From positions 143 through 64,142 of the forward strand of contig JBNASD010000003.1 of NCBI GenBank assembly GCA_049720225.1: 64,000 nucleotides of DNA. Reading direction: 5' to 3'. Positions 28,616 to 38,462 of this stretch are shown here, piece by piece. The translations under genes were made by a program, and so were the position numbers. The notes under the pieces were generated by a model. That model saw only the letters and a program-made list of their open reading frames with translations. It ran no database searches and was not told where the DNA came from. This stretch comes from Microgenomates group bacterium. Lineage in GTDB: Bacteria; Patescibacteriota; Microgenomatia; PFEM01; JBNASD01. Within the stretch, counting starts at the first letter, position 1. The number at the start of each line of letters is the position of its first letter.

Positions 28616-29392
28616 TTATACTGGCATACAAACTACAACCGCATCATCGGTTTTAATTAAAGCCAAAGGTGGTCCAGAAGCTCCATCTGTAAAAATAAAA
28701 ACATAACTGCCTTTAGAAACCTTTCTAATAGCTAATTTCGGTGATTTAAACAATTCTCCCGGAGACGGTAATTGATCTTCCGGTAAAAATGTAGAATAAT
28801 TAGAAAGACTAGATAAAACAACGGTCTGTTGAATTCCGTCTTGTGGTTGATCTACCATTCCCTCAGTAGAAGTCACTTTATCCCATGAACCATCTTCTTT
28901 TATTATTACTACCGATGTGTTTCCTACATATAAAATATAAACATTATCGTCAACCATCGTCACAAACGTAAAAGTAGCCTCAGTTATTGAACCTAATTTT
29001 TTTAATCCTAAACCTTCTACATTCTGTTCTTTTTCCCAAACAGTCTTAAAAGCTAATTTTATTGCTTGATCGGGTAGAAATTTTTCTAAAAAGTAGAAAT
29101 AATAATTGAGAAATTCATTGGCAAAAACTTTAGTATTTAAAATATTTCCTTCTCTTTCTCTTCTAGAAGCAGTATCCATTACAATAACCGCTCCCCTTTC
29201 ATCAACCAAAAAATAATCCTCACCCACCCAATTGTAATCATCCTTATCGGGAGTACTATTATAAGTATAACACCCAACTTTTATTTCTCTTTTTTTGCCA
29301 ACTTTATAACTAATTACTCTATCGAAACCTAAACTCTTAAATTCAGGAGGAATTTGACTATTTCGACGAAAAGGTTCTCTTAATAATTCCAT
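28616..29392 (-). CDS. hypothetical protein
   Basis: 258 aa ORF; no confident motif. Confidence 0.45.
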   Translation of the reverse strand: MELLREPFRRNSQIPPEFKSLGFDRVISYKVGKKREIKVGCYTYNSTPDKDDYNWVGEDYFLVDERGAVIVMDTASRREREGNILNTKVFANEFLNYYFYFLEKFLPDQAIKLAFKTVWEKEQNVEGLGLKKLGSITEATFTFVTMVDDNVYILYVGNTSVVIIKEDGSWDKVTSTEGMVDQPQDGIQQTVVLSSLSNYSTFLPEDQLPSPGELFKSPKLAIRKVSKGSYVFIFTDGASGPPLALIKTDDAVVVCMPV

Positions 29393-29413: not shown

Positions 29414-31960
29414 TTAGCTAACCACAAAATTAATCAATTTCCCGGGAATAAAAATTACTTTACGAATTTCCTTACCTACAAAGTATTTTACCACGCCCGG
29501 TTCATTTTTGGCTAATTTTTCTACTTCACTTTGAATTTTTGCTTTTTCGCTTTCAATTTTAATCTGTCCGCGAACTTTTCCGTTAACTTGAATAACCACC
29601 ACCACCTCTTTTTCTACTATCAAATAAGGATCATATTTTGGCCAAGGTTGTTGATGAATTGAAAATTCATTTCTTAAAATCTCTACCCAAATTTCCTCAG
29701 TTAAATAAGGGGCAAAGGGTGATAAAAGTTTTAAAAACTCACCTGCTTCTTTTTTACTCAATACCATTTTTGGTTTTTGCCAAAGATTTAAAAATTCCAT
29801 TAAGGCAGAAATAGCGGTATTATGAGCTAAACGATTGATATCTTCGGTTACCTTTTTAATTGTTTGGTGAAAGGGAGTCACTAACTCTTCACTTGTTTTA
29901 TCAGCAATTTTTTCTGTCTGCTGATAAATTCGCCAAATGCGGTTTAAAAATCGCCACACTCCCTCCAATCCTTGATAGCTCCACGGCATAGTCGCATCAT
30001 AAGGACCCATAAAACATAAATAAGTCCGTAAAGTATCGGCACCAAATTTTTCCACCACTTCATCAGGATTAACAACATTTCCCCGCGATTTACTCATTTT
30101 TTCTCCATCCTCCCCTAAAATTACTCCATGCTGACGGCGAGCTTGGTAAGGTTCTGGATAAGGAACAACACCAATATCGTATAAAAATTTATGCCAAAAA
30201 CGAGAATATAAAAGGTGTAAGGTGGTGTGCTCCCCTCCTCCTAAATAAATATCTACCGGTAACCAATATTTTAATTTTTCAAAATCAGCCGGCACTTGAT
30301 TATTTTTTGGGTCGCAATAACGCCAATAATACCAAGAAGAACCTGCCCAGTTAGGCATAGTATCGGTTTCCCGCCGCGCTGGTCCACCACAATGAGGACA
30401 GGTAGTATTTACCCAATTTTTAATATTGGCTAAAGGTGACTCCCCTGTTTCCGTTGGCTGATATTTTTCTACCGGAGGCAATTCTAGTGGTAATTCATCT
30501 TCCGGAAGAGGAAACCAACCAGCCATATTTTCAATTTTAAATTTTAAATTTAAAATTTTAAATTTTTTTCCTTCTGGAGTATCCCACCAGCTAATCCCCT
30601 TTTGGGCACATTTTTCGCAATAAACCATCGGGATTGGCTCACCCCAATAATGCTGACGGGAAAAAATCCAATCACGCAAATGATAATTAACCGCCCGTCT
30701 TCCCCACTTTTTCTCTTCTAAATAATCAATAATTTTTTTAATTGCTTCCCGCGCTGGCAATCCGTTCAAAAAATCAGAATTAAAAACCACTCCATTATCA
30801 ATTTCCTCAAAAGCCCCTCGGCTAAAATCCCACTCTCCTTTTTGCGGTTTAATCACCGGAATAATTTCCAAACCATATTTTTTGGCAAAATCAAAATCCC
30901 GTTGGTCATGAGCCGGTACCCCCACTACCATTCCTGTTCCGGCGGTTAGCACGACAAAATCCGCTACCCAAATTGGCAATTTTTTTCCTGTCAGTCGATT
31001 AATTGCATACCAACCGGTAAACACTCCTGTTTTTCCTTTCTCTAGGGCAGTCCGCTCTAATTCTGATTTCTTTTTAGATATTTTGATATATTCTTCTATC
31101 TGAGAACGATTTTCGGGGGTAATTAATTTTTCTAAAAAGGGATGTTCTGGAGCAATAACGATAAAAGTGGCCCCAAAATTAGTATCTGGCCGGGTAGTAT
31201 AACAAGAAACCATCAATTTTTCAGGATGGGGATTGCCTTTTTCGTCTACCACCGGATAATCAATAATAATTCCCTCACTCCGACCAATCCAATTAATTTG
31301 CGATTCTTTAACATAATCGGGGTAATCAACCAATTTTAAATCTTCAATTAATCGATCCGCATAGGCGGTAATTCGTAACAACCATTGAGATTGCATTCGC
31401 CGTTCTGCGTCGGTTCCGCACCGCTCACATTTTCCGGCGACAATTTCTTCATTGGCCAAAATAATTTTACAGCGGGGACACCAACCCACCGGCATTTGCG
31501 CTTTATAAGCCAAACCATGCTTAAAAAATTGAATAAATATCCATTGAGTCCAGCGATAATAATTAGGGTCGGTGGTATTAATTTCTCGCTCCCAGTTATA
31601 AGCAAAACCTAAACGCTTCATTTGGGATCGAAAACGATCGGTATTTTGTTTAGTAGCTACCGTTGGGTGAATTCCAGTTTTAATCGCGTAATTTTCGGTT
31701 GGTAACCCAAAAGCATCCCAACCCATCGGATACAAAACATTTTTTCCCTCCATTCTTTTTTGACGAGCCAAAACATCCATTATCGTCATTGTGAAAGCAT
31801 GACCAATATGAAGACCGCTTCCGGAAGGATAGGGAAACTCTACCAACGCGTAAAATTTTTTATCACGGGGAGCTTTTTCCTCAACTTCCCAAAAAAGTTT
31901 TTTTTCTTCCCAAATTTTTTGCCATTTTGGTTCAATTTCTGAAGGGTGATATGGCTTCAT
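29414..31960 (-). CDS. leuS: leucine--tRNA ligase (with lineage-specific insertions)
   Basis: HIGH motif YPSGSGLHIGHAF, KMSKS motif EKMSKSRGN, editing-domain and C4 zinc knuckle (CPRC...CERC); 848 aa. Confidence 0.9.
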   Translation of the reverse strand: MKPYHPSEIEPKWQKIWEEKKLFWEVEEKAPRDKKFYALVEFPYPSGSGLHIGHAFTMTIMDVLARQKRMEGKNVLYPMGWDAFGLPTENYAIKTGIHPTVATKQNTDRFRSQMKRLGFAYNWEREINTTDPNYYRWTQWIFIQFFKHGLAYKAQMPVGWCPRCKIILANEEIVAGKCERCGTDAERRMQSQWLLRITAYADRLIEDLKLVDYPDYVKESQINWIGRSEGIIIDYPVVDEKGNPHPEKLMVSCYTTRPDTNFGATFIVIAPEHPFLEKLITPENRSQIEEYIKISKKKSELERTALEKGKTGVFTGWYAINRLTGKKLPIWVADFVVLTAGTGMVVGVPAHDQRDFDFAKKYGLEIIPVIKPQKGEWDFSRGAFEEIDNGVVFNSDFLNGLPAREAIKKIIDYLEEKKWGRRAVNYHLRDWIFSRQHYWGEPIPMVYCEKCAQKGISWWDTPEGKKFKILNLKFKIENMAGWFPLPEDELPLELPPVEKYQPTETGESPLANIKNWVNTTCPHCGGPARRETDTMPNWAGSSWYYWRYCDPKNNQVPADFEKLKYWLPVDIYLGGGEHTTLHLLYSRFWHKFLYDIGVVPYPEPYQARRQHGVILGEDGEKMSKSRGNVVNPDEVVEKFGADTLRTYLCFMGPYDATMPWSYQGLEGVWRFLNRIWRIYQQTEKIADKTSEELVTPFHQTIKKVTEDINRLAHNTAISALMEFLNLWQKPKMVLSKKEAGEFLKLLSPFAPYLTEEIWVEILRNEFSIHQQPWPKYDPYLIVEKEVVVVIQVNGKVRGQIKIESEKAKIQSEVEKLAKNEPGVVKYFVGKEIRKVIFIPGKLINFVVS

Positions 31961-32024: not shown

Positions 32025-32771
32025 ATGGGAAAGTTTCTTCTCCACTCTCTTTTTTTATTCGTGGCGGTGTTTTTAGCTTTCTTTTGGACTAGCTCTCCTA
32101 CTTTATCTTTATACACTCTTCAACTTATTGGTCTTTTTGTTTTTCTTTTTTTTCTTAATCAATTTCTTCGTCGACAACCAAAAACCAAAACCAAAATTAA
32201 CCAACGAGCCTTATTAGCAGTAGACGGAATAATCCTTACCTTAGTAATAATGCTTTTGGTCTATTCTACCGGTGGTTTAACTTCTCCCCTGTTTTTTTTA
32301 GTTTATTTTTTAATGTTTGGCTTAGCCTTGCTTTTTGAACCATTAATTACTCTTTCTTTGGCGGGAGTAATGGTTTTGCTTTTTTTACTCACCCCCACCA
32401 AACAAGAACCCCTAAACGAATTTCTTCAACTTTTTTCTCTCCTTTTAATTACTCCATTGGCTTTATTTTTTGGCAATCAATATCTCAAACTTTTAGAAAG
32501 TGAGGAAAAAATAAAAATTTTAAAAGAAGAAAATCAAATTACCGAGGAGCAAATCGCCAAAACCGAAACCAATACTCTTTTGTGGACCACTTTGAATTTC
32601 AAAGAAGCCCTTACAGTAATTTTAGATGAGATAAGCAATTTGTTAGCGGATGTAAGTCATCTTACTGTTCGCCAAAAAGAATCGTTAGAAAAAATCCGCC
32701 GAAAGGCATTAGAACTTTTAAAAAGCGGAGAAAAGCTTAAAGAAGAGGTCGACAAAACTACCGACGAATGA
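32025..32771 (+). CDS. polytopic membrane protein with C-terminal coiled-coil; hypothetical
   Basis: About 6 hydrophobic helices then charged heptad-like tail. Confidence 0.45.
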   Translation: MGKFLLHSLFLFVAVFLAFFWTSSPTLSLYTLQLIGLFVFLFFLNQFLRRQPKTKTKINQRALLAVDGIILTLVIMLLVYSTGGLTSPLFFLVYFLMFGLALLFEPLITLSLAGVMVLLFLLTPTKQEPLNEFLQLFSLLLITPLALFFGNQYLKLLESEEKIKILKEENQITEEQIAKTETNTLLWTTLNFKEALTVILDEISNLLADVSHLTVRQKESLEKIRRKALELLKSGEKLKEEVDKTTDE

Positions 32772-33508
32772 AATATAAAAAATACCATATAAAATATTTT
32801 TCCTTCTTCATTTTTGCTATTTGCTATTTACTATTTACTATTCCCATCGGGGCCCAATCAAAAATTCGCTCAGATAATTACGAAATTACCTGGCCTAATG
32901 TTAATATGGGTGGAGGAACTCCAGGGTCAACTAACTATCAATTAGGGGTAACCACCGGTCAGACGGCTCCCGGTCTTTATTCTTCCACCGGTTATAAAGT
33001 CCGCGCGGGGTTCCAATATATTCATTCAATTATTCCCTTTTCTTTTTCTATCTCCGATATTTCTGTTGATTTTGGCACTCTCTCTCCCCAAACGCCAATT
33101 ACCCAACAAGCGACTTTAAAAGTTTCTGTAGGAGGTGCAGGTGGTTATGTAGTTAAAGTTTCTGAAAACCATCCTCTCACCTCCACGGCCGGCTCTACTA
33201 TTCCCGATACAAATTGTGACAATGGTAATTGTAGCGAAAGTCAAGCCCAAGTTTGGGCGCAAAATACTACTTATGGTTTTGGTTTTAATATGAGCGGAAC
33301 GGATATTCCTTCTGATTTTATTAATTCTTCGTATTTTCGCCAATTTGCTGACCGCTCTTTAGGAGAATCTCCTCAAACGATTATGAGCGGACCAAATGTT
33401 GGTCGAAATAAACAGGCAACTATTACTTATAAAGTCAATATTTCCCCGCTTCAATCGGCAGGAGTTTATCAAAATATTTTAACTTTTTTAGCGATACCGA
33501 CATACTAA
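32768..33508 (+). CDS. secreted surface protein, type 'A' of duplicated two-gene module (putative WxL-like/Csc partner)
   Basis: Signal peptide; paralogous to 34652..36088 (shared NCDNGNCSE/TCDNGSCTE block and C-terminal ...TIMS..GP...Y.....P.. tail); start overlaps previous stop. Confidence 0.5.
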   Translation: MKYKKYHIKYFSFFIFAICYLLFTIPIGAQSKIRSDNYEITWPNVNMGGGTPGSTNYQLGVTTGQTAPGLYSSTGYKVRAGFQYIHSIIPFSFSISDISVDFGTLSPQTPITQQATLKVSVGGAGGYVVKVSENHPLTSTAGSTIPDTNCDNGNCSESQAQVWAQNTTYGFGFNMSGTDIPSDFINSSYFRQFADRSLGESPQTIMSGPNVGRNKQATITYKVNISPLQSAGVYQNILTFLAIPTY

Positions 33509-34570
33509 ATGAAATTTAAAATTTTAAATAGCAAATTTAAGATTTACATTTTAAATTTAAAATTTTTACTAATAACTGGTTGCTTTTTGTTTCTAATTAT
33601 TATTCCGGCAAAAGCACAGGAACTTTCTTTGGGAATTTGGCCGCCCCTACTTGAGGTAATGATTCAACCGGGAAAAGGAATTACTCAGGTTTATAAAGTA
33701 ATTAACCAAAGCGAAACTGATTTGGTATTAACCAGCAAAATCGTTCCTTTTACCCCAGAAGACGAATTAGGAACGCCGAAATTAAATTTAGAAAAGCAAG
33801 TGGATTATTTAGATTGGTTTTCATTTCAAAATGCGGATTTAAAACTGGGAGAAAAATTTTTATTGCCAAAAGGAAAAGAACAACAATTAGTTTTAAAAAT
33901 TAAAATTCCTCCTCACGCCCCAGAAGGAGACTATTACCTTACTTTACTTTTAGAAACTGTCCAAATTCCGGGAATGTATCTTCCTTCTCAAAGTGGCGGC
34001 CAAATTGAGGCAAAAATTGGGGGAAATATTCTTTTGACCGTTTCCCAAACCGGTAAACCGAAAATCCAAGCAAAAATTGAAGAGTTCAAACTTAAAAATT
34101 TTCAATTTTCTGTTTTCGGCTTAAGATTTATCGATTCTTTCAATCAACCACAATTTTTAATCCGAGTTCGCAATACCGGTCAAGCCTTTTTTAAACCCCA
34201 AGGAACAATTACGGTTAATGGTTGGTTTGGTCAAAAATGGGAATTAACTTTACTTCCGGAAAATGTTTTAGTAAATTCCACTCGCCAAATTAACTGCCAA
34301 GGATTGCCTTTAAAATTAGAAGAAACAACAAAGAATGAACCTCAAAGTTATTCCCCTACCCCTTGTCAACTTTCAAATAATTTTCTTTTAGGAAAATATA
34401 CCGCTAAGTTAGAATTTAATCTTGAAGGAGAAAAAGAAAAATATCAGGCTCTTTTAATTTTTTGGGCCATCCCAATAAAACTGATTATTGGCATTGGTAT
34501 TGTTTTCTTTTTTTTGATAATATTTTTTCAAAGGGTTTTCCCTAGGTGTCAATATAAATCCACTCCTTAG
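33509..34570 (+). CDS. DUF916/DUF3324-like cell-surface protein with C-terminal TM anchor (CscA-like), type 'B'
   Basis: MKFKILNSKFKI leader + signal; LSLGIWPPLLEVMIQPGKGITQVYKVINQSETDLVLTSKIVPFTPEDELGTP resembles the DUF916 N-domain pattern; C-terminal TM IKLIIGIGIVFFFLIIFF; paralog of 36088..37107. Confidence 0.5.
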   Translation: MKFKILNSKFKIYILNLKFLLITGCFLFLIIIPAKAQELSLGIWPPLLEVMIQPGKGITQVYKVINQSETDLVLTSKIVPFTPEDELGTPKLNLEKQVDYLDWFSFQNADLKLGEKFLLPKGKEQQLVLKIKIPPHAPEGDYYLTLLLETVQIPGMYLPSQSGGQIEAKIGGNILLTVSQTGKPKIQAKIEEFKLKNFQFSVFGLRFIDSFNQPQFLIRVRNTGQAFFKPQGTITVNGWFGQKWELTLLPENVLVNSTRQINCQGLPLKLEETTKNEPQSYSPTPCQLSNNFLLGKYTAKLEFNLEGEKEKYQALLIFWAIPIKLIIGIGIVFFFLIIFFQRVFPRCQYKSTP

Positions 34571-34576
34571 GTGGGA
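34539..34576. repeat. palindromic repeat element, full copy 3 (variant core TCCACTCCTTAGGTGGGA)
   Basis: Overlaps the stop codon of 33509..34570; repeat translated as FPRCQYKSTP*. Confidence 0.65.
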
Positions 34577-34651
34577 AAAATTACCATCTTGACAAATTAA
34601 AAAAAACGTTTCAAGATAATAAATTAAGAAAATGTCATTTTAAATTTAAGA

Positions 34652-36088
34652 ATGAAGAAAAGAATTTTAATTACTTTTATTATTCTTCTTATTCTTGGAG
34701 TATTAAGTTTATTGTTTAAACCCCAAAAGCCCCAAGCTGCTTCTTTAACCAACGTCTCCGCTACCCTCTCTAATTCTCGGTTGTCTTTTTATGGAGTTTT
34801 AAATGGAGCGGTTTCGGCGGGAGCAACAGCGATTAAAATTAAAACCTCAGGAAACTATGCTGATAAAAACACCAACCATCTTTTTCCCAATGATACGGTT
34901 TCGGTAGGACCAAATGGAGGAAAAACAGTGGCTTCGATTATTGATGATGATGATTTTGTTCTCACTTCAGGATTAACGGTAGGGGCTAGCGATGGAGATC
35001 CTGTTTACGCTACTCAATCATCGCAAATGACTGTTTCTTTTACTTTAAACAGTAATATTCCTGCTAATGGTTATGTTTTACTCATTATTCCTGATCCCCC
35101 TAGCAATGGTAATGATGGAGCTCCCGATACCGCTTCTTCTACCACCGATAATGGTTTTGATTTGAATGGAATAACAGCAGCTAATATTTCTACCAGTGGT
35201 GGTACGGGTTGTACTTGGTCAACAGAAACAGTTACCCCCGGAACAGGTAATGGCCATCGCTATAAAGTAAAAACCACCAGTGAATGCACTGGAGGAACAA
35301 TTACTATTACTGTTGGTGATGGCACTGTTAATTTAGTTAATCCTGCACCAGTTTATTCTGGTCATACCCAAGGAACCGCTGATGTTTACACTGTTTCTGT
35401 TTATACCTATGCTGGTGATCCTGATGGTGGTGGGGCTTTAATTGATAGCGGTTATGCCAGGGTAGCTCCAGTTGAAGCAGTTTTAGTCTCAGCCACTGTT
35501 GAGGAAACTTTAACCTTTATTGTTAGTGGTGTCTCTGTCGGTACGACTGCTTGTGGTCAAGTAATGGACGTTACCACTTATCCTTATGCGGTTCCCTGGG
35601 GAACTTTATCTCAAGCGAATACTTTTAAAGAGGCGGCGCAAAAACTAGAAGTTTCCACTAATGCCAATAATGGTTATACCGTAGTTATCGAAGAAAACGA
35701 CCAAATGGGCTTAAACGGCAAAACTTGTACCGGGGCGAACGCCGGAGAAGCTGATGATTGTATTAAAGATACCACTTGTGATAACGGTAGTTGCACTGAA
35801 GCAACTTCGGCAGAATGGAACACGGCTACTAATAACGGTTTGGGTTATTCTTTAGCTAATATTTCGGGAACCGATGCTGTTTTTACTTATAATGAATCTG
35901 GACGAACTTTTTCAGCAAAACAAATCGCCGATCGCGAAGCCAATGAAACGCGCCGAACAATTATGAGCAATAGTGGACCGGTTAATTCCAAACAAATTTA
36001 TGTCTGTTATCGAATTTCTATTTCCGGAACTCAACCAGCAGGTTATTATTACAATAAGGTTAAATATACCGCCACACCTGTATTCTAA
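34652..36088 (+). CDS. secreted surface protein, type 'A' paralog (larger, Gly/Thr-rich beta-rich)
   Basis: Signal peptide; paralogous blocks with 32768..33508. Confidence 0.5.
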   Translation: MKKRILITFIILLILGVLSLLFKPQKPQAASLTNVSATLSNSRLSFYGVLNGAVSAGATAIKIKTSGNYADKNTNHLFPNDTVSVGPNGGKTVASIIDDDDFVLTSGLTVGASDGDPVYATQSSQMTVSFTLNSNIPANGYVLLIIPDPPSNGNDGAPDTASSTTDNGFDLNGITAANISTSGGTGCTWSTETVTPGTGNGHRYKVKTTSECTGGTITITVGDGTVNLVNPAPVYSGHTQGTADVYTVSVYTYAGDPDGGGALIDSGYARVAPVEAVLVSATVEETLTFIVSGVSVGTTACGQVMDVTTYPYAVPWGTLSQANTFKEAAQKLEVSTNANNGYTVVIEENDQMGLNGKTCTGANAGEADDCIKDTTCDNGSCTEATSAEWNTATNNGLGYSLANISGTDAVFTYNESGRTFSAKQIADREANETRRTIMSNSGPVNSKQIYVCYRISISGTQPAGYYYNKVKYTATPVF

Positions 36089-37107
36089 TGAAAGATAAAA
36101 TATTAAATAGCAAATATAAAAAATACTTTTCTTTATTAATATTTTCTATTTTCTATTTGCTATTTGCTATCCGAGCCGCAAACGCCCAAAATACTACCCA
36201 CTTAATTGTCGCTCCTTCCCGCCAAGAAATTCTGGTTGAACCAGGAGAAACTACTGCAATAAATATTAAATTTCTTAATCAGACGGATGCTCCCATTCCC
36301 GGAACAGTGGGAGCAGTTGATTTTATTGTCGAAGATAAAGAAGGAACACCTACTTTTATTGAAGGAACACCAGTAATTACCGGTTTAACTCAGATTTCTT
36401 CTCGTTTTTCCGCCGCTTCTTGGTTTGAACTTCCTTATGACCGCGCCACTATTCCCGCCAACGGCAAGGTTTTAATTCAAGCAAAAATTCGTGTGCCGGT
36501 AGATGCTCGCCCAGGTGGAAGATATGTCGCTATTTATTTCGAACCGAGTACTACCCCCTCTCCCCCCTCCGGATTGGCAAAAGAAGGAACAACGCCAGTA
36601 GCCTCCCGAATTGTTGGTTTAGTTTATCTGCGTGTCGCCGGACCAATTAAAGAAGACGCTTACGTTGTCCGTTTTGGTGGACCCAATTTCTCCCAATATG
36701 GACCAATTACCATTCTTACGGAAATTCTTAACCGCGGCGATTACCACATCACTCCTAAGGGAGTAATTAAAATTTACAATATGTTTAATCAAGAAATAGA
36801 TCGGCAAAAACTGGAAGAAAAAAATATCTTTCCCGATGCTTCAAGAGTCTATGAAAATAAGGTTGGCCAAAAATGGATGTTTGGTAAGTATAAAGCAGAA
36901 TTAAGTGCTTCTTATGGAGAAACAGGAAAAGCTTTAACCGCTACCACTTATTTCTGGGTAATTCCTTACAAAGAAATTATTGCTGGCGTTTTAGCAATTG
37001 CAATTATAATTCTTCTGGCAATTATCCTTTACCGCCGATTAATAAAACGCCAGTTGGAACTTCAGGAAAGGGTAAAGGAATTGGAAAAGAAGCTTAAGGA
37101 AAAGTAA
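36088..37107 (+). CDS. DUF916/DUF3324-like cell-surface protein with C-terminal TM anchor (CscA-like), type 'B' paralog
   Basis: MKDKILNSKYKKY leader + signal; THLIVAPSRQEILVEPGETTAINIKFLNQTDAPIPGTVGAVDFIVEDKEGTP; C-terminal TM IIAGVLAIAIIILLAIIL + coiled-coil tail. Confidence 0.5.
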   Translation: MKDKILNSKYKKYFSLLIFSIFYLLFAIRAANAQNTTHLIVAPSRQEILVEPGETTAINIKFLNQTDAPIPGTVGAVDFIVEDKEGTPTFIEGTPVITGLTQISSRFSAASWFELPYDRATIPANGKVLIQAKIRVPVDARPGGRYVAIYFEPSTTPSPPSGLAKEGTTPVASRIVGLVYLRVAGPIKEDAYVVRFGGPNFSQYGPITILTEILNRGDYHITPKGVIKIYNMFNQEIDRQKLEEKNIFPDASRVYENKVGQKWMFGKYKAELSASYGETGKALTATTYFWVIPYKEIIAGVLAIAIIILLAIILYRRLIKRQLELQERVKELEKKLKEK

Positions 37108-37110
37108 TTC

Positions 37111-37151
37111 CTCAATTTTCAATTTTCAATTTACAATTTTTAATTTTCAAC
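37111..37151. repeat. heptanucleotide tandem repeat (CAATTTT-like x5) in intergenic leader
   Basis: CTCAATTTTCAATTTTCAATTTACAATTTTTAATTTTCAAC. Confidence 0.5.
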
Positions 37152-37167
37152 TTAAAATAAATTTATA

Positions 37168-38040
37168 ATGATAATTATTTTAATCTTAATTTTTTGGTGG
37201 TCGTTTTCCTCTCCTACCTTTGCTTTTTCCCCACAAAACTGGGAAATTACCGTTTCCGCTACCATTGGAGAACCCAAATTAACCGTTTATGGTTATACTT
37301 CACCCCAAGCATTAGTTGAACTAAAAGGAAACCGAATTTCTGAATTAACCATCGCCGACGCTACTGGTTATTTTCAATTTAATAAAGTTTTCTTACCTCC
37401 TCCTAAACCTCACTATCCCGAAATTTGTTTAACGGTAGTCGATCGCCAAAGTCGAGTTTCTTCCTTTCCTACTTGTCTTCCCCTTCTTCCCCCAAAATTA
37501 GCAGAAATTCGCGTTGGTCCAGTCTTGCTTCCTCCGACTTTAACTTTAGAAAAAGGAGAATTTTTACCTGGTGAACAAGTAAAAGCAGTGGGGGCAACCT
37601 TTCCCAATTCTTTAGTCACCATCTTTTTAGCCAATAGTCAAAATCAAAATTTTTCTATTTCCGAAAAAATTATTCCTTCTGCTTATGCTTTCTTTTTACC
37701 AAAATACGAAATTAAAAGTGACGAAAATGGCAACTTTGAATTTAATTTGCCCGCCGACAAACCAAACTATTGGCAAGCATTTGCCACTGCCGAATTTCAA
37801 GGTTTTGCCTCGCCTAAAAGTAATTCTTTAAGCTTTAAAATTTTAGGTTGGCAAGAGTGGTTTTGGTTAAAAATAAAAATTTTTTTCTTAACTATTTTAA
37901 ATTTTTTAAGGCCTTATTGGTGGTGGGTAATTATTATTGGAGAAATCATTCTTCTTTTTCTTCTTTTCCGTCAAAAAAAGAAATCTTCTTGGCTAATGAC
38001 TTCCCCACCCCGTCAGATAATTAAAAAAGAAAAAAATTAA
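37168..38040 (+). CDS. secreted Ig-like surface protein with C-terminal TM anchor
   Basis: Signal peptide; C-terminal WWWVIIIGEIILLFLLF followed by a basic tail. Confidence 0.45.
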   Translation: MIIILILIFWWSFSSPTFAFSPQNWEITVSATIGEPKLTVYGYTSPQALVELKGNRISELTIADATGYFQFNKVFLPPPKPHYPEICLTVVDRQSRVSSFPTCLPLLPPKLAEIRVGPVLLPPTLTLEKGEFLPGEQVKAVGATFPNSLVTIFLANSQNQNFSISEKIIPSAYAFFLPKYEIKSDENGNFEFNLPADKPNYWQAFATAEFQGFASPKSNSLSFKILGWQEWFWLKIKIFFLTILNFLRPYWWWVIIIGEIILLFLLFRQKKKSSWLMTSPPRQIIKKEKN

Positions 38041-38462
38041 CGAAAAATTACTTTTACCCGTTGAGGTAAAATTTTTCCTCTTACCTGTCCTTCAATTAAA
38101 TACTCTCCTGGTTGCTGGGCAGAAACATCAAATATAGCCCTTCCTAATTCATCGGTTGTCCCCTGAATAGGAACAATAACTAAAGACTGTTCGTTGTTTC
38201 CCAAAAAAACGGGTTGATTGGCTAATCCACGACCAGTATTATCTAAAATAAAAACGGTGACCCGAATTTTTTCCTCCCCTCCTGCTTGAGCCTGCAACGG
38301 CGAGGCAAAAAGATAAGAATTTTCTAAAGAAATTACTCCTTCACTTCTGGGAGTGTAAGCTCGGCCAAAAAAGGTTGTTCGTTGAGAAATTACCAAAACT
38401 AATCCTCCTAAAGAAAAAATTAGAATAATTATAATTAAAAAAAGTAAAAGAAATTTTTTCAT
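38037..38462 (-). CDS. small membrane-anchored/secreted hypothetical protein
   Basis: N-terminal TM; 141 aa. Confidence 0.4.
   Translation of the reverse strand: MKKFLLLFLIIIILIFSLGGLVLVISQRTTFFGRAYTPRSEGVISLENSYLFASPLQAQAGGEEKIRVTVFILDNTGRGLANQPVFLGNNEQSLVIVPIQGTTDELGRAIFDVSAQQPGEYLIEGQVRGKILPQRVKVIFR

Follow-up and report, generated by a model that had tools for sequence, protein, structure and literature searches.

We analysed a 64,000-nucleotide stretch of DNA from a Microgenomates group bacterium (GenBank assembly GCA_049720225.1, contig JBNASD010000003.1, positions 143 to 64,142 of the forward strand), referred to below as the window, whose own numbering is used throughout. Its forward strand carries, at positions 32025-38040, an array of six closely packed open reading frames (ORFs) in the order U-A1-B1-A2-B2-C, followed downstream by a convergent gene, D (Table 1). 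The stop codon of U and the start codon of A1 overlap by 4 nt, and U is translationally coupled to A1. The start of B1 directly abuts the stop of A1 (TAAATG), the A2 stop and B2 start overlap by 1 nt, and D overlaps the 3′ end of C by 4 nt. Promoter and terminator scans of the locus performed no better than scans of shuffled sequence. Hydrophobicity analysis indicates N-terminal signal peptides on A1, B1, A2, B2 and C, and among these five products C-terminal hydrophobic anchors only on B1 (residues 312-347), B2 (residues 289-321) and C (residues 247-269).

An initial annotation, made from the sequence alone, had described this locus as a duplicated two-gene cell-surface module resembling the Csc system of Firmicutes. 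The duplication is real, and the ORFs lie where they had been placed: residues 99-246 of A1 align with residues 313-478 of A2 at 33% identity (BLASTP, E=6e-21), and B1 and B2 align along their whole length as paralogs with 23% identity (E=7e-18). The sequence hallmarks proposed for each pair are likewise present. The CDNG.C.E block reads NCDNGNCSE in A1 and TCDNGSCTE in A2, both of which end in the TIMS..GP...K tail, and the MK.KILNSK.K leader occurs in the two B proteins as MKFKILNSKFKIY and MKDKILNSKYKKY, ahead of the predicted signal peptide and C-terminal transmembrane anchor that had also been claimed for them. The boundaries of the module have to be redrawn around these pairs, as the conserved unit begins one gene earlier, at U. 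Of the two further proteins said to be anchored at their C-termini, C is (transmembrane segment 247-269), but the gene at 38037 lies on the minus strand and its product, D, has an N-terminal anchor.

The B1 and B2 genes are nearly identical over about 40 nt at their starts (ATGAAA..TAAAAT.TTAAATAGCAAAT.TAA), despite the low identity of their proteins. Among orthologs of B1 and B2, Lys/Asn/Phe-rich n-regions recur (KIQNSKFKI, NFKF). The near-identity of the 5′ DNA suggests a constraint on RNA or on translation coupling, or else gene conversion.

Table 1 Features of the array in window coordinates, with the basis of each assignment (aa, amino acids; AF2, AlphaFold2)
Feature	Position	Strand	Description	Basis
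U	32025..32771	+	248 aa; conserved polytopic membrane protein; first gene of the array	ORF list, hydrophobic segments
A1	32768..33508	+	246 aa, 26.8 kDa; secreted small subunit, PamT-like putative tip pilin	NCBIfam
A1 C-terminal pilin domain	33062..33505	+	residues 99-246; common to A2	BLASTP, NF058581
B1	33509..34570	+	353 aa; predicted membrane-anchored WxLIP/PapD-like chaperone paired with A1; signal peptide, two predicted β-sandwich domains, C-terminal transmembrane segment	paralogy with B2, hhalign
B1 leader DNA copy	33509..33550	+	codes for MKFKILNSKFKIY	near-identity to B2 start
A2	34652..36088	+	478 aa, 49.7 kDa; secreted two-domain PamA-like putative shaft pilin	AF2, NF058581
A2 mature N-terminal strand	34742..34795	+	residues 31-48, LTNVSATLSNSRLSFYGV; bears VSAT..L[ST]	motif, profile alignment, AF2
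A2 inter-domain linker	35465..35530	+	residues 272-293, APVEAVLVSATVEETLTFIVSG; candidate donor strand	conservation, AF2
A2 C-terminal pilin domain	35531..36085	+	residues 294-478	NF058581, BLASTP against A1
B2	36088..37107	+	339 aa; predicted membrane-anchored WxLIP/PapD-like chaperone paired with A2	AF2, Foldseek, hhalign
B2 leader DNA copy	36088..36129	+	codes for MKDKILNSKYKKY	near-identity to B1 start
C	37168..38040	+	290 aa, 33.3 kDa; PamR-like putative terminator/membrane tether	family alignment, transmembrane segment, mass
D	38037..38462	-	141 aa; small Big_1 protein with an N-terminal anchor; gene convergent to C	Pfam

The A proteins are related to Pam pilins

A recent preprint reports cryo-electron microscopy (cryo-EM) structures of two filaments from Ca. 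Mycosynbacter amalyticus, a parasite that belongs to the Candidate Phyla Radiation (CPR) (Troman et al., bioRxiv 10.64898/2026.03.03.709456). In these Pam pili, PamA, PamB and PamE are two-domain pilins whose linker strand is donated into the open C-terminal immunoglobulin (Ig)-like domain of the neighbouring subunit, and PamT is a single-domain tip. PamC and PamD are PapD/FimC-like chaperones with an unusual C-terminal transmembrane helix, and PamR, a protein of two domains with a transmembrane helix at its C-terminus plus one additional N-terminal strand, is proposed to terminate and tether the pilus. Pam homologs are found chiefly in Saccharimonadia and Microgenomatia, and the supplement lists masses of 25.6 kDa for PamT, 32.8 kDa for PamR and 55.3 kDa for PamA (10.64898/2026.03.03.709456).

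A1 matches the NCBIfam model of the tip subunit, NF058579 (CPR_pilus_PamT), with E=2.8e-16, residues 13-246 corresponding to positions 6-241 of a profile of 241. Both A proteins also match the pilin-domain model NF058581 (CPR_Pam_pilin_C) through their C-terminal domains, as do 30 of 39 A2 orthologs (best E=8.4e-7); the scores of A1 and A2 are weighed below. A1 has a predicted mass of 26.8 kDa versus 25.6 kDa for PamT, and A2 one of 49.7 kDa versus 55.3 kDa for PamA. From orthologs of A1 and A2 together we collected 91 C-terminal pilin domains.

The AF2 model of A2 (predicted local distance difference test score, pLDDT, 88) is built of two β domains, one N-terminal and one C-terminal, joined by a linker that is the sole low-confidence, unstructured inter-domain stretch of the modelled monomer (pLDDT 65-76, falling below 50 at residues 280-282); orthologs keep the sequence of this linker, APVEAVLVSATV(D/E)E(T/S)L(T/S)F, nearly without change. 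Of the eight cysteines of A2, orthologs retain five without exception and a sixth nearly so. The best Foldseek matches of the model in the PDB, all weak, are chaperone-usher pilins and adhesins (CfaB, CfaE, PapG, CupB6 and FimH), with whole-chain TM-scores that are poor owing to the two flexible domains; no WxL chain appears in the top 50, nor does PamA or PamB, which the PDB copy searched does not contain. Pfam offered nothing useful for A1 or A2, and a match of A1 to GBS104-like_Ig (7.8e-4) was set aside, as its roughly 30 residues are too short to interpret. Searches of PDB sequences with A1, A2 and the B profile returned no meaningful match.

The B proteins belong to the WxLIP superfamily

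WxL clusters typically encode a small WxL protein, a large WxL protein and a WxLIP, a strand of which is predicted by AF2 to complete the β-sandwich of the WxL domain (PMC10599100). In Csc nomenclature CscA is the WxLIP, made up of DUF916 (PF06030), DUF3324 (PF11797) and a transmembrane segment, CscB and CscC are WxL proteins (PF13731), and CscD is a small LPXTG protein encoded in many of the clusters.

The AF2 model of B2 (pLDDT 82) shows two β-sandwiches and a long C-terminal helix (residues 294-338). When the model was compared with the PDB using Foldseek, the best folds were the Enterococcus faecium WxLIP structures 9i1y and 9i25 (E about 1e-13, TM-score 0.60-0.65), the latter being a WxLIP bound to a long WxL protein. 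Ranked after these were the chaperones CfaA, YadV, CsuC, CupB2, DraB, FimC, Caf1M and SafB (E from 5e-10 to 1e-7, TM-score about 0.5), several of these PapD-family matches being to pilin complexes (CfaA-CfaB, CsuC-CsuA/B, FimC-FimH and Caf1M-Caf1). The likeness to PapD is confined to the level of the fold, and neither PapD_N nor PapD_C is among the top Pfam families of 65 B-family members.

At the sequence level, B2 alone reaches PF06030 (DUF916, WxLIP_PGBD) below threshold (E=0.12), and 54 of the 65 diverse family members match this family, the best with 1.1e-7. PF11797 is absent among the B matches listed, and no NCBIfam model was matched at E<=0.1 by B or C, including the 65 B-family members. 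For a direct comparison, genomes were scanned for the DUF916 signature NQIDKxxxYFD, and from the Firmicutes WxL loci gathered in this way we extracted 86 WxLIP and 72 small WxL proteins. The B family, B1 included, aligns with the 86 WxLIPs over 255 columns spanning both domains (hhalign, probability 99.2%, E=5.4e-20), with a score of 151 versus 29 for a reversed-sequence control. Given this score and its control, profile comparison places B as a remote but true member of the WxLIP superfamily, a membership that holds at superfamily level. The resemblance of the B N-terminal domain to DUF916, which the initial annotation had recognized from a residue pattern, is thus borne out by profile comparison and by structure prediction. 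In the B2 model a low-confidence loop at about residues 155-172 lies just before the conserved strand RIVGLVYLRV, a region that aligns with the hairpin and strand of WxLIP.

A strand motif is shared by A2 and C

C is predicted to comprise a signal peptide, an N-terminal strand, two β-sandwich domains (with weak CarboxypepD_reg matches in 9 of 21 orthologs) and the transmembrane segment at 247-269; its mass of 33.3 kDa compares with 32.8 kDa for PamR. The mature N-terminus of C, EITVSATIGEPKLTVYG, contains a SIGE..L.LFGY strand that is conserved in the family, with G34 and E35 invariant and S30 and I33 nearly invariant in the alignment.

The mature N-terminus of C also repeats a motif, VSAT..L[ST], found at the mature N-terminus of A2, NVSATLSNSRLSFYG, where AF2 models residues 31-48 with confidence as a strand of the N-terminal domain. 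Of 67 A2 ORFs, 56 carry the motif in its strict form, VSA[ST][ILV], as do 8 of 54 C ORFs; it is absent from all A1 (24), B1 (33), B2 (79), D (43) and U (22) ORFs, with a single occurrence among 277 other ORFs. When the profiles of the C and A2 families were compared, their N-termini matched at E=1.1e-4 (hhalign), a score to which the signal peptides contribute. As judged from sequence, this distribution fits an arrangement in which A1 would be an acceptor-only tip, A2 a donor-and-acceptor shaft subunit, and C a donor-only anchored terminator.

Conservation of the array and its neighbourhood

To place the array among its relatives, metagenome contigs were scanned with the B2-family alignment, which yielded 80 loci with B2 orthologs of at least 47% identity. 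This set served the analysis of synteny and did not broaden the pilin profile (effective number of sequences, Neff, about 2.3-2.9). About 25 long metagenomic contigs, with B2 proteins 47-79% identical, keep the order leuS(-) | U A1 B1 A2 B2 C (+) | D(-). Linkage of the A and B genes is therefore stable; the unlinking of A and B paralogs elsewhere that could have spoken against a two-gene module is not what these contigs show. Across the related loci U was counted in 22 loci, C as 54 ORFs, D in 43 loci and adjacency to leuS in 15 loci. A2 and B2 are 100% identical to hypothetical proteins from a metagenome-assembled genome of a Microgenomates group bacterium, and named homologs of window proteins come from Shapirobacteria and Gottesmanbacteria, both CPR lineages, matching the Microgenomates host. 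Among 1.84 billion proteins, the B-family profile retrieved 11,610 representatives of 50%-identity clusters at E<=1e-3.

U, with about 5-6 transmembrane segments and a C-terminal coiled coil, is the best-conserved gene of the array, with 66% mean column identity and an invariant STGG..SP.FFL.YFL.F motif. Its Pfam matches are weak and inconsistent (6TM_PilS, 0.036), and a PilS-like sensor assignment was dropped, the weak match being found in only 1 of 15 orthologs. Possible roles for U are those of a platform for assembly or of a sensor; the Pam preprint does not describe it and concludes that there is no dedicated membrane machinery (10.64898/2026.03.03.709456). D contains a bacterial Ig-like domain (Big_1, Pfam, E=4.7e-10). 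It keeps its place beside the array in 43 related loci, including those with other genes farther out, and may therefore belong to the system.

Some related loci depart from the standard order between B1 and A2. The competence gene comEC, encoding membrane and metallo-beta-lactamase domains, is inserted there in L170:3950-5571, L187:3115-4718 and L198:3145-5404, the last of which also carries a gene for a comEA-like helix-hairpin-helix protein at this position, and an AAA ATPase gene is inserted in L127:4006-5172. L126:3-5465 has a full-length A2-type pilin gene (480 aa) and a second, short one (306 aa), both downstream of phage-like genes that include one for a tail-fibre or pectate-lyase-like protein.

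In the window itself, the upstream neighbour of the array is the divergent leuS (848 aa, 29414-31960, minus strand), beyond which lies a 258-aa ORF of unassigned function (28616-29392, minus strand). Downstream, positions 38550-60223 form a large envelope-glycosylation neighbourhood that encodes GT2 glycosyltransferases, a methyltransferase, two B12-binding radical SAM enzymes, PMT_2 and YfhO-type membrane glycosyltransferases, an NPCBM-domain protein and several 500-aa proteins that have no Pfam match. PamA of M. amalyticus is O-glycosylated (10.64898/2026.03.03.709456). Glycosylation of the pilins by this cluster is conceivable by analogy; the linkage of the cluster to the array is not kept in related loci.

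Comparison with WxL/Csc systems

The initial annotation had cast the A proteins as WxL-like partners of B, and this part is not supported. There is no W-x-L motif in A1 or A2, and PF13731 has no match at E<=1 in A1, A2 or 39 A2 orthologs. The A C-terminal domain or full-length A1 aligns with the WxL family at a non-significant E=0.065-0.11, versus 0.26 for the reversed control (hhalign). The low-stringency alignment is collinear: G-Y-x-V-x-V-x-E-N falls opposite the first WxL motif, G-W-x-L-x-V-K-Q-N, NYEITWPN opposite (Y)xSNGxVxFxPN, and the C-terminal Y..[IV]..[FY].A opposite Y.T.L-T-W-x-L. When 1,075 Firmicutes ORFs were ranked with a hidden Markov model (HMM) of the CPR pilin domain, WxL proteins made up 7-8 of the top 10, 14-15 of the top 20 and 24-26 of the top 40 against a background of 17%, compared with 4, 9 and 17 for the reversed model and a maximum of 7, 12 and 20 for 20 column-shuffled models. 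Composition accounts for part of this weak signal, with a modest order-specific remainder.

In other respects the two systems have features in common. B is homologous to WxLIP over both domains and has the same layout of signal peptide, two domains and transmembrane segment at a similar length (339-353 versus 337-365 aa). A small and a large partner, A1 and A2, accompany a transmembrane-anchored interactor, with two B genes here, and for both systems the prediction is that a DUF916 strand completes the sandwich of the partner. Common to both, too, is an anchored protein in which the N-terminal strand of the partner recurs. For C and A2 this is the motif described above; in 14 Firmicutes loci a small LPXTG protein of CscD type shares its mature N-terminal strand, of the YDSNGVxxF type, with the adjacent WxL proteins (for example ANYDSNGVTAF versus NYDSNGV(V/I)xF), with a mean best 9-mer score of 22.1 versus 14.1 and 15.9 for controls (p=6e-5 and 2e-3). 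The loci with such strand sharing include L025:3024-3413, L051, L063 and L077. These shared strands hint at CscD as a terminator, anchored in the wall, that may insert into WxL domains.

The two systems also differ. The A proteins lack the two W-x-L motifs and have G-Y-x-V and [FY]-x-A at the aligned positions, and the DUF916 signature NQIDKxxxYFDL is replaced in B by P(A/S)RQE...V.PGE. The operon proteins contain no LPxTG motif, and C is anchored by a transmembrane helix instead of an LPXTG sortase signal. The host here is a CPR bacterium as opposed to a member of the Lactobacillales or Listeria, and WxL systems are currently seen as peptidoglycan-bound complexes, not as pili.

A probable Pam-type pilus and its alternatives

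We consider it quite likely that the locus is a divergent Microgenomatia member of the Pam pilus family, specifying a thin, chaperone-assisted, usher-less, donor-strand fibre on the surface of an ultrasmall, single-membrane cell. The features that carry this interpretation are the paralogy of the two pairs, their synteny, the homology of A to Pam pilins, the homology and fold of B, and the strand motif of A2 and C. The Pam system shares its CPR host with this locus, and Microgenomatia homologs were already flagged in the preprint. Judged by sequence and models, both appear to combine a PamT-like subunit, small and of one domain, with a pilin of two domains that has the same C-terminal pilin domain, and the pilins contain pairs of cysteines. 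The chaperones (here B) consist of two β-sandwiches and a C-terminal transmembrane helix, a transmembrane-anchored protein of about 33 kDa (PamR, and putatively C) has an additional N-terminal strand, and neither system encodes an usher or ATPase. The initial annotation envisaged a noncovalent surface complex; the Pam system, to which the matches of the A proteins point, forms donor-strand filaments, and the premise that a Csc-like system would be unexpected outside Lactobacillales has been overtaken by the 2026 work on CPR Pam pili.

The mechanism that we propose draws polymerisation, subunit order, chaperone specificity and function from analogy with the Pam family and from the parts present. 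All six plus-strand products except U, judging from the signal peptides observed, would be exported by Sec, and B1 and B2 would be held in the membrane by their C-terminal helix. Each B would cap the open C-terminal domain of the pilin encoded upstream of it (B1 that of A1, B2 that of A2) by inserting a strand of its first domain, the DUF916-like one. PamT-like A1, which has no VSAT strand, would form the distal, acceptor-only tip, and A2 would polymerise as a VSAT strand of one subunit takes the place of the chaperone's strand in the C-terminal domain of the subunit before it; by analogy with PamA and PamB, the donated A2 strand would be the inter-domain linker. C, which combines a VSAT-type N-terminal strand and a transmembrane anchor and has no pilin acceptor domain, would plug the last subunit, ending growth and tethering the fibre, with U and D as co-conserved accessories. 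The fibre would likely be used to attach to a host or partner cell, or to capture one.

Such a pathway resembles that of chaperone-usher pili in its proposed donor-strand complementation and exchange, in the two-domain Ig-like chaperone fold of B2, and in the matches of the A2 model to CfaB, CfaE, PapG and FimH. It differs in that there is no outer membrane here, the chaperones are membrane-tethered and the pilins have an extra N-terminal domain; no usher-sized gene is found in the array. The locus also differs from the published Pam systems: it has one shaft-type pilin gene versus PamA, PamB and PamE, a strict alternation of pilin and chaperone genes, the extra conserved genes U and D, and highly divergent sequences. 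Its neighbours are leuS and the glycosylation cluster rather than ATP synthase, CorB or MFS genes.

Several observations weigh against a Pam-type pilus. Every score of A1 and A2 lies below its curated cut-off: A1 reaches 59.6 bits versus an equivalog cut-off of 240 for NF058579, and for NF058581 (cut-off 55) the values are 40.2 bits for A1 (E=3.3e-10, residues 99-246) and 22.2 bits for A2 (E=1.2e-4, residues 314-478). The NF058581 matches are nonetheless significant in statistical terms and extend over the entire profile. With scores so far under the cut-offs, the A proteins are, in sequence terms, distant relatives of Pam pilins and not equivalogs. The correspondence of B to PamC and PamD, and of C to PamR, would be one of matching architecture and description, and B is nearer to WxLIP, a protein currently read as a surface anchor and not as an assembly chaperone. 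The shared VSAT motif could merely mark homologous first strands of related domains, and from sequence both the A2 N-terminus and the A2 linker are candidates for the donated strand. The ATP-synthase neighbourhood of the reported pam operons is not seen beside this locus.

The kinship of B with WxLIP, its closest relative by profile (E=5.4e-20) and by fold, makes a non-filamentous complex of Csc/WxL type the most pertinent alternative. B would then permanently hold A1 and A2 at the surface by strand insertion, no polymer would form, and the N-terminal domain of A2 would be a ligand- or host-binding module. WxL clusters typically combine small and large WxL proteins with a WxLIP in a strand-completed sandwich (PMC10599100), one B accompanies each A here, and the weak order-specific signal between the A C-terminal domain and WxL domains points the same way. 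We nevertheless regard such a complex as unlikely. The A proteins match models of Pam pilins, whose founding members are filaments seen by cryo-EM, and they have neither a W-x-L motif nor a Pfam WxL match. The near-invariant linker of A2, and the combination in C of a strand and an anchor with no acceptor domain, are hard to explain unless strands are exchanged between subunits. The thick peptidoglycan of Firmicutes type to which WxL domains bind is not known from CPR envelopes.

It seems far less probable still that these are unrelated secreted Ig-like adhesins or S-layer-type proteins, whose likeness to Pam and WxL proteins would be that of any Ig fold and whose pairs would reflect simple tandem duplication. 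Ig-like folds do match promiscuously, B2 having 591 Foldseek matches in the PDB at E<=0.001 that include axonemal and RbmA proteins, and the family-model matches of the window proteins are all under curated thresholds. The profile statistics, however, go well past what a generic fold would give, with B aligned to WxLIP at 5.4e-20 over two domains in order and A1 matched to PamT at 2.8e-16 over its full length. The conserved order of six genes across many contigs, the A-B pairing and a strand motif confined to A2 and C point to a single functional system. A Pam-type pilus remains the interpretation that we favour.

A possible common origin of Pam pili and WxL/Csc clusters

The double resemblance of this locus raises the prospect that Pam pili and WxL/Csc clusters are two branches of one ancient, usher-less chaperone/donor-strand system of monoderms, an idea that we hold tentatively, as possible but short of probable. 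Its parts differ in standing. The equivalence of WxLIP/CscA with PamC/PamD and with B is established in its B-WxLIP half by profile comparison. The equivalence of the WxL domain with the C-terminal domain of Pam pilins, in which both tryptophans would be replaced by Tyr/Phe (G-W-x-L versus G-Y-x-V, and L-T-W-x-L versus [FY]-x-A), is suggestive, as is, by analogy, that of LPXTG CscD with transmembrane-anchored C/PamR as terminator and tether. The Pam preprint (10.64898/2026.03.03.709456) makes no mention of WxL or DUF916, and in the literature searched we found no paper that mentions WxL or DUF916 together with CPR; a link between Pam and WxL/Csc is apparently unreported.

Implications

CPR bacteria may make up much of bacterial diversity, and they live attached to other cells, most of them by means that are unknown. 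A compact, strongly syntenic operon of Pam type that is widespread in Microgenomatia would supply a parts list for such attachment, comprising a tip, a shaft, two dedicated chaperones and a tether, along with U and D as conserved but uncharacterised partners. Through its chaperones, homologs of WxLIP, the CPR pilus is linked to the WxL/Csc clusters, which have a part in virulence and adhesion in enterococci, listeriae and lactobacilli. This link suggests a mechanism for the Gram-positive WxL system, namely donor-strand complementation with an anchored terminator. If the two systems are indeed branches of one, WxL proteins would be assembled, and possibly polymerised, by strand complementation, beyond sticking to peptidoglycan, and the Pam 'chaperones' would have a 20-year-old Gram-positive counterpart.

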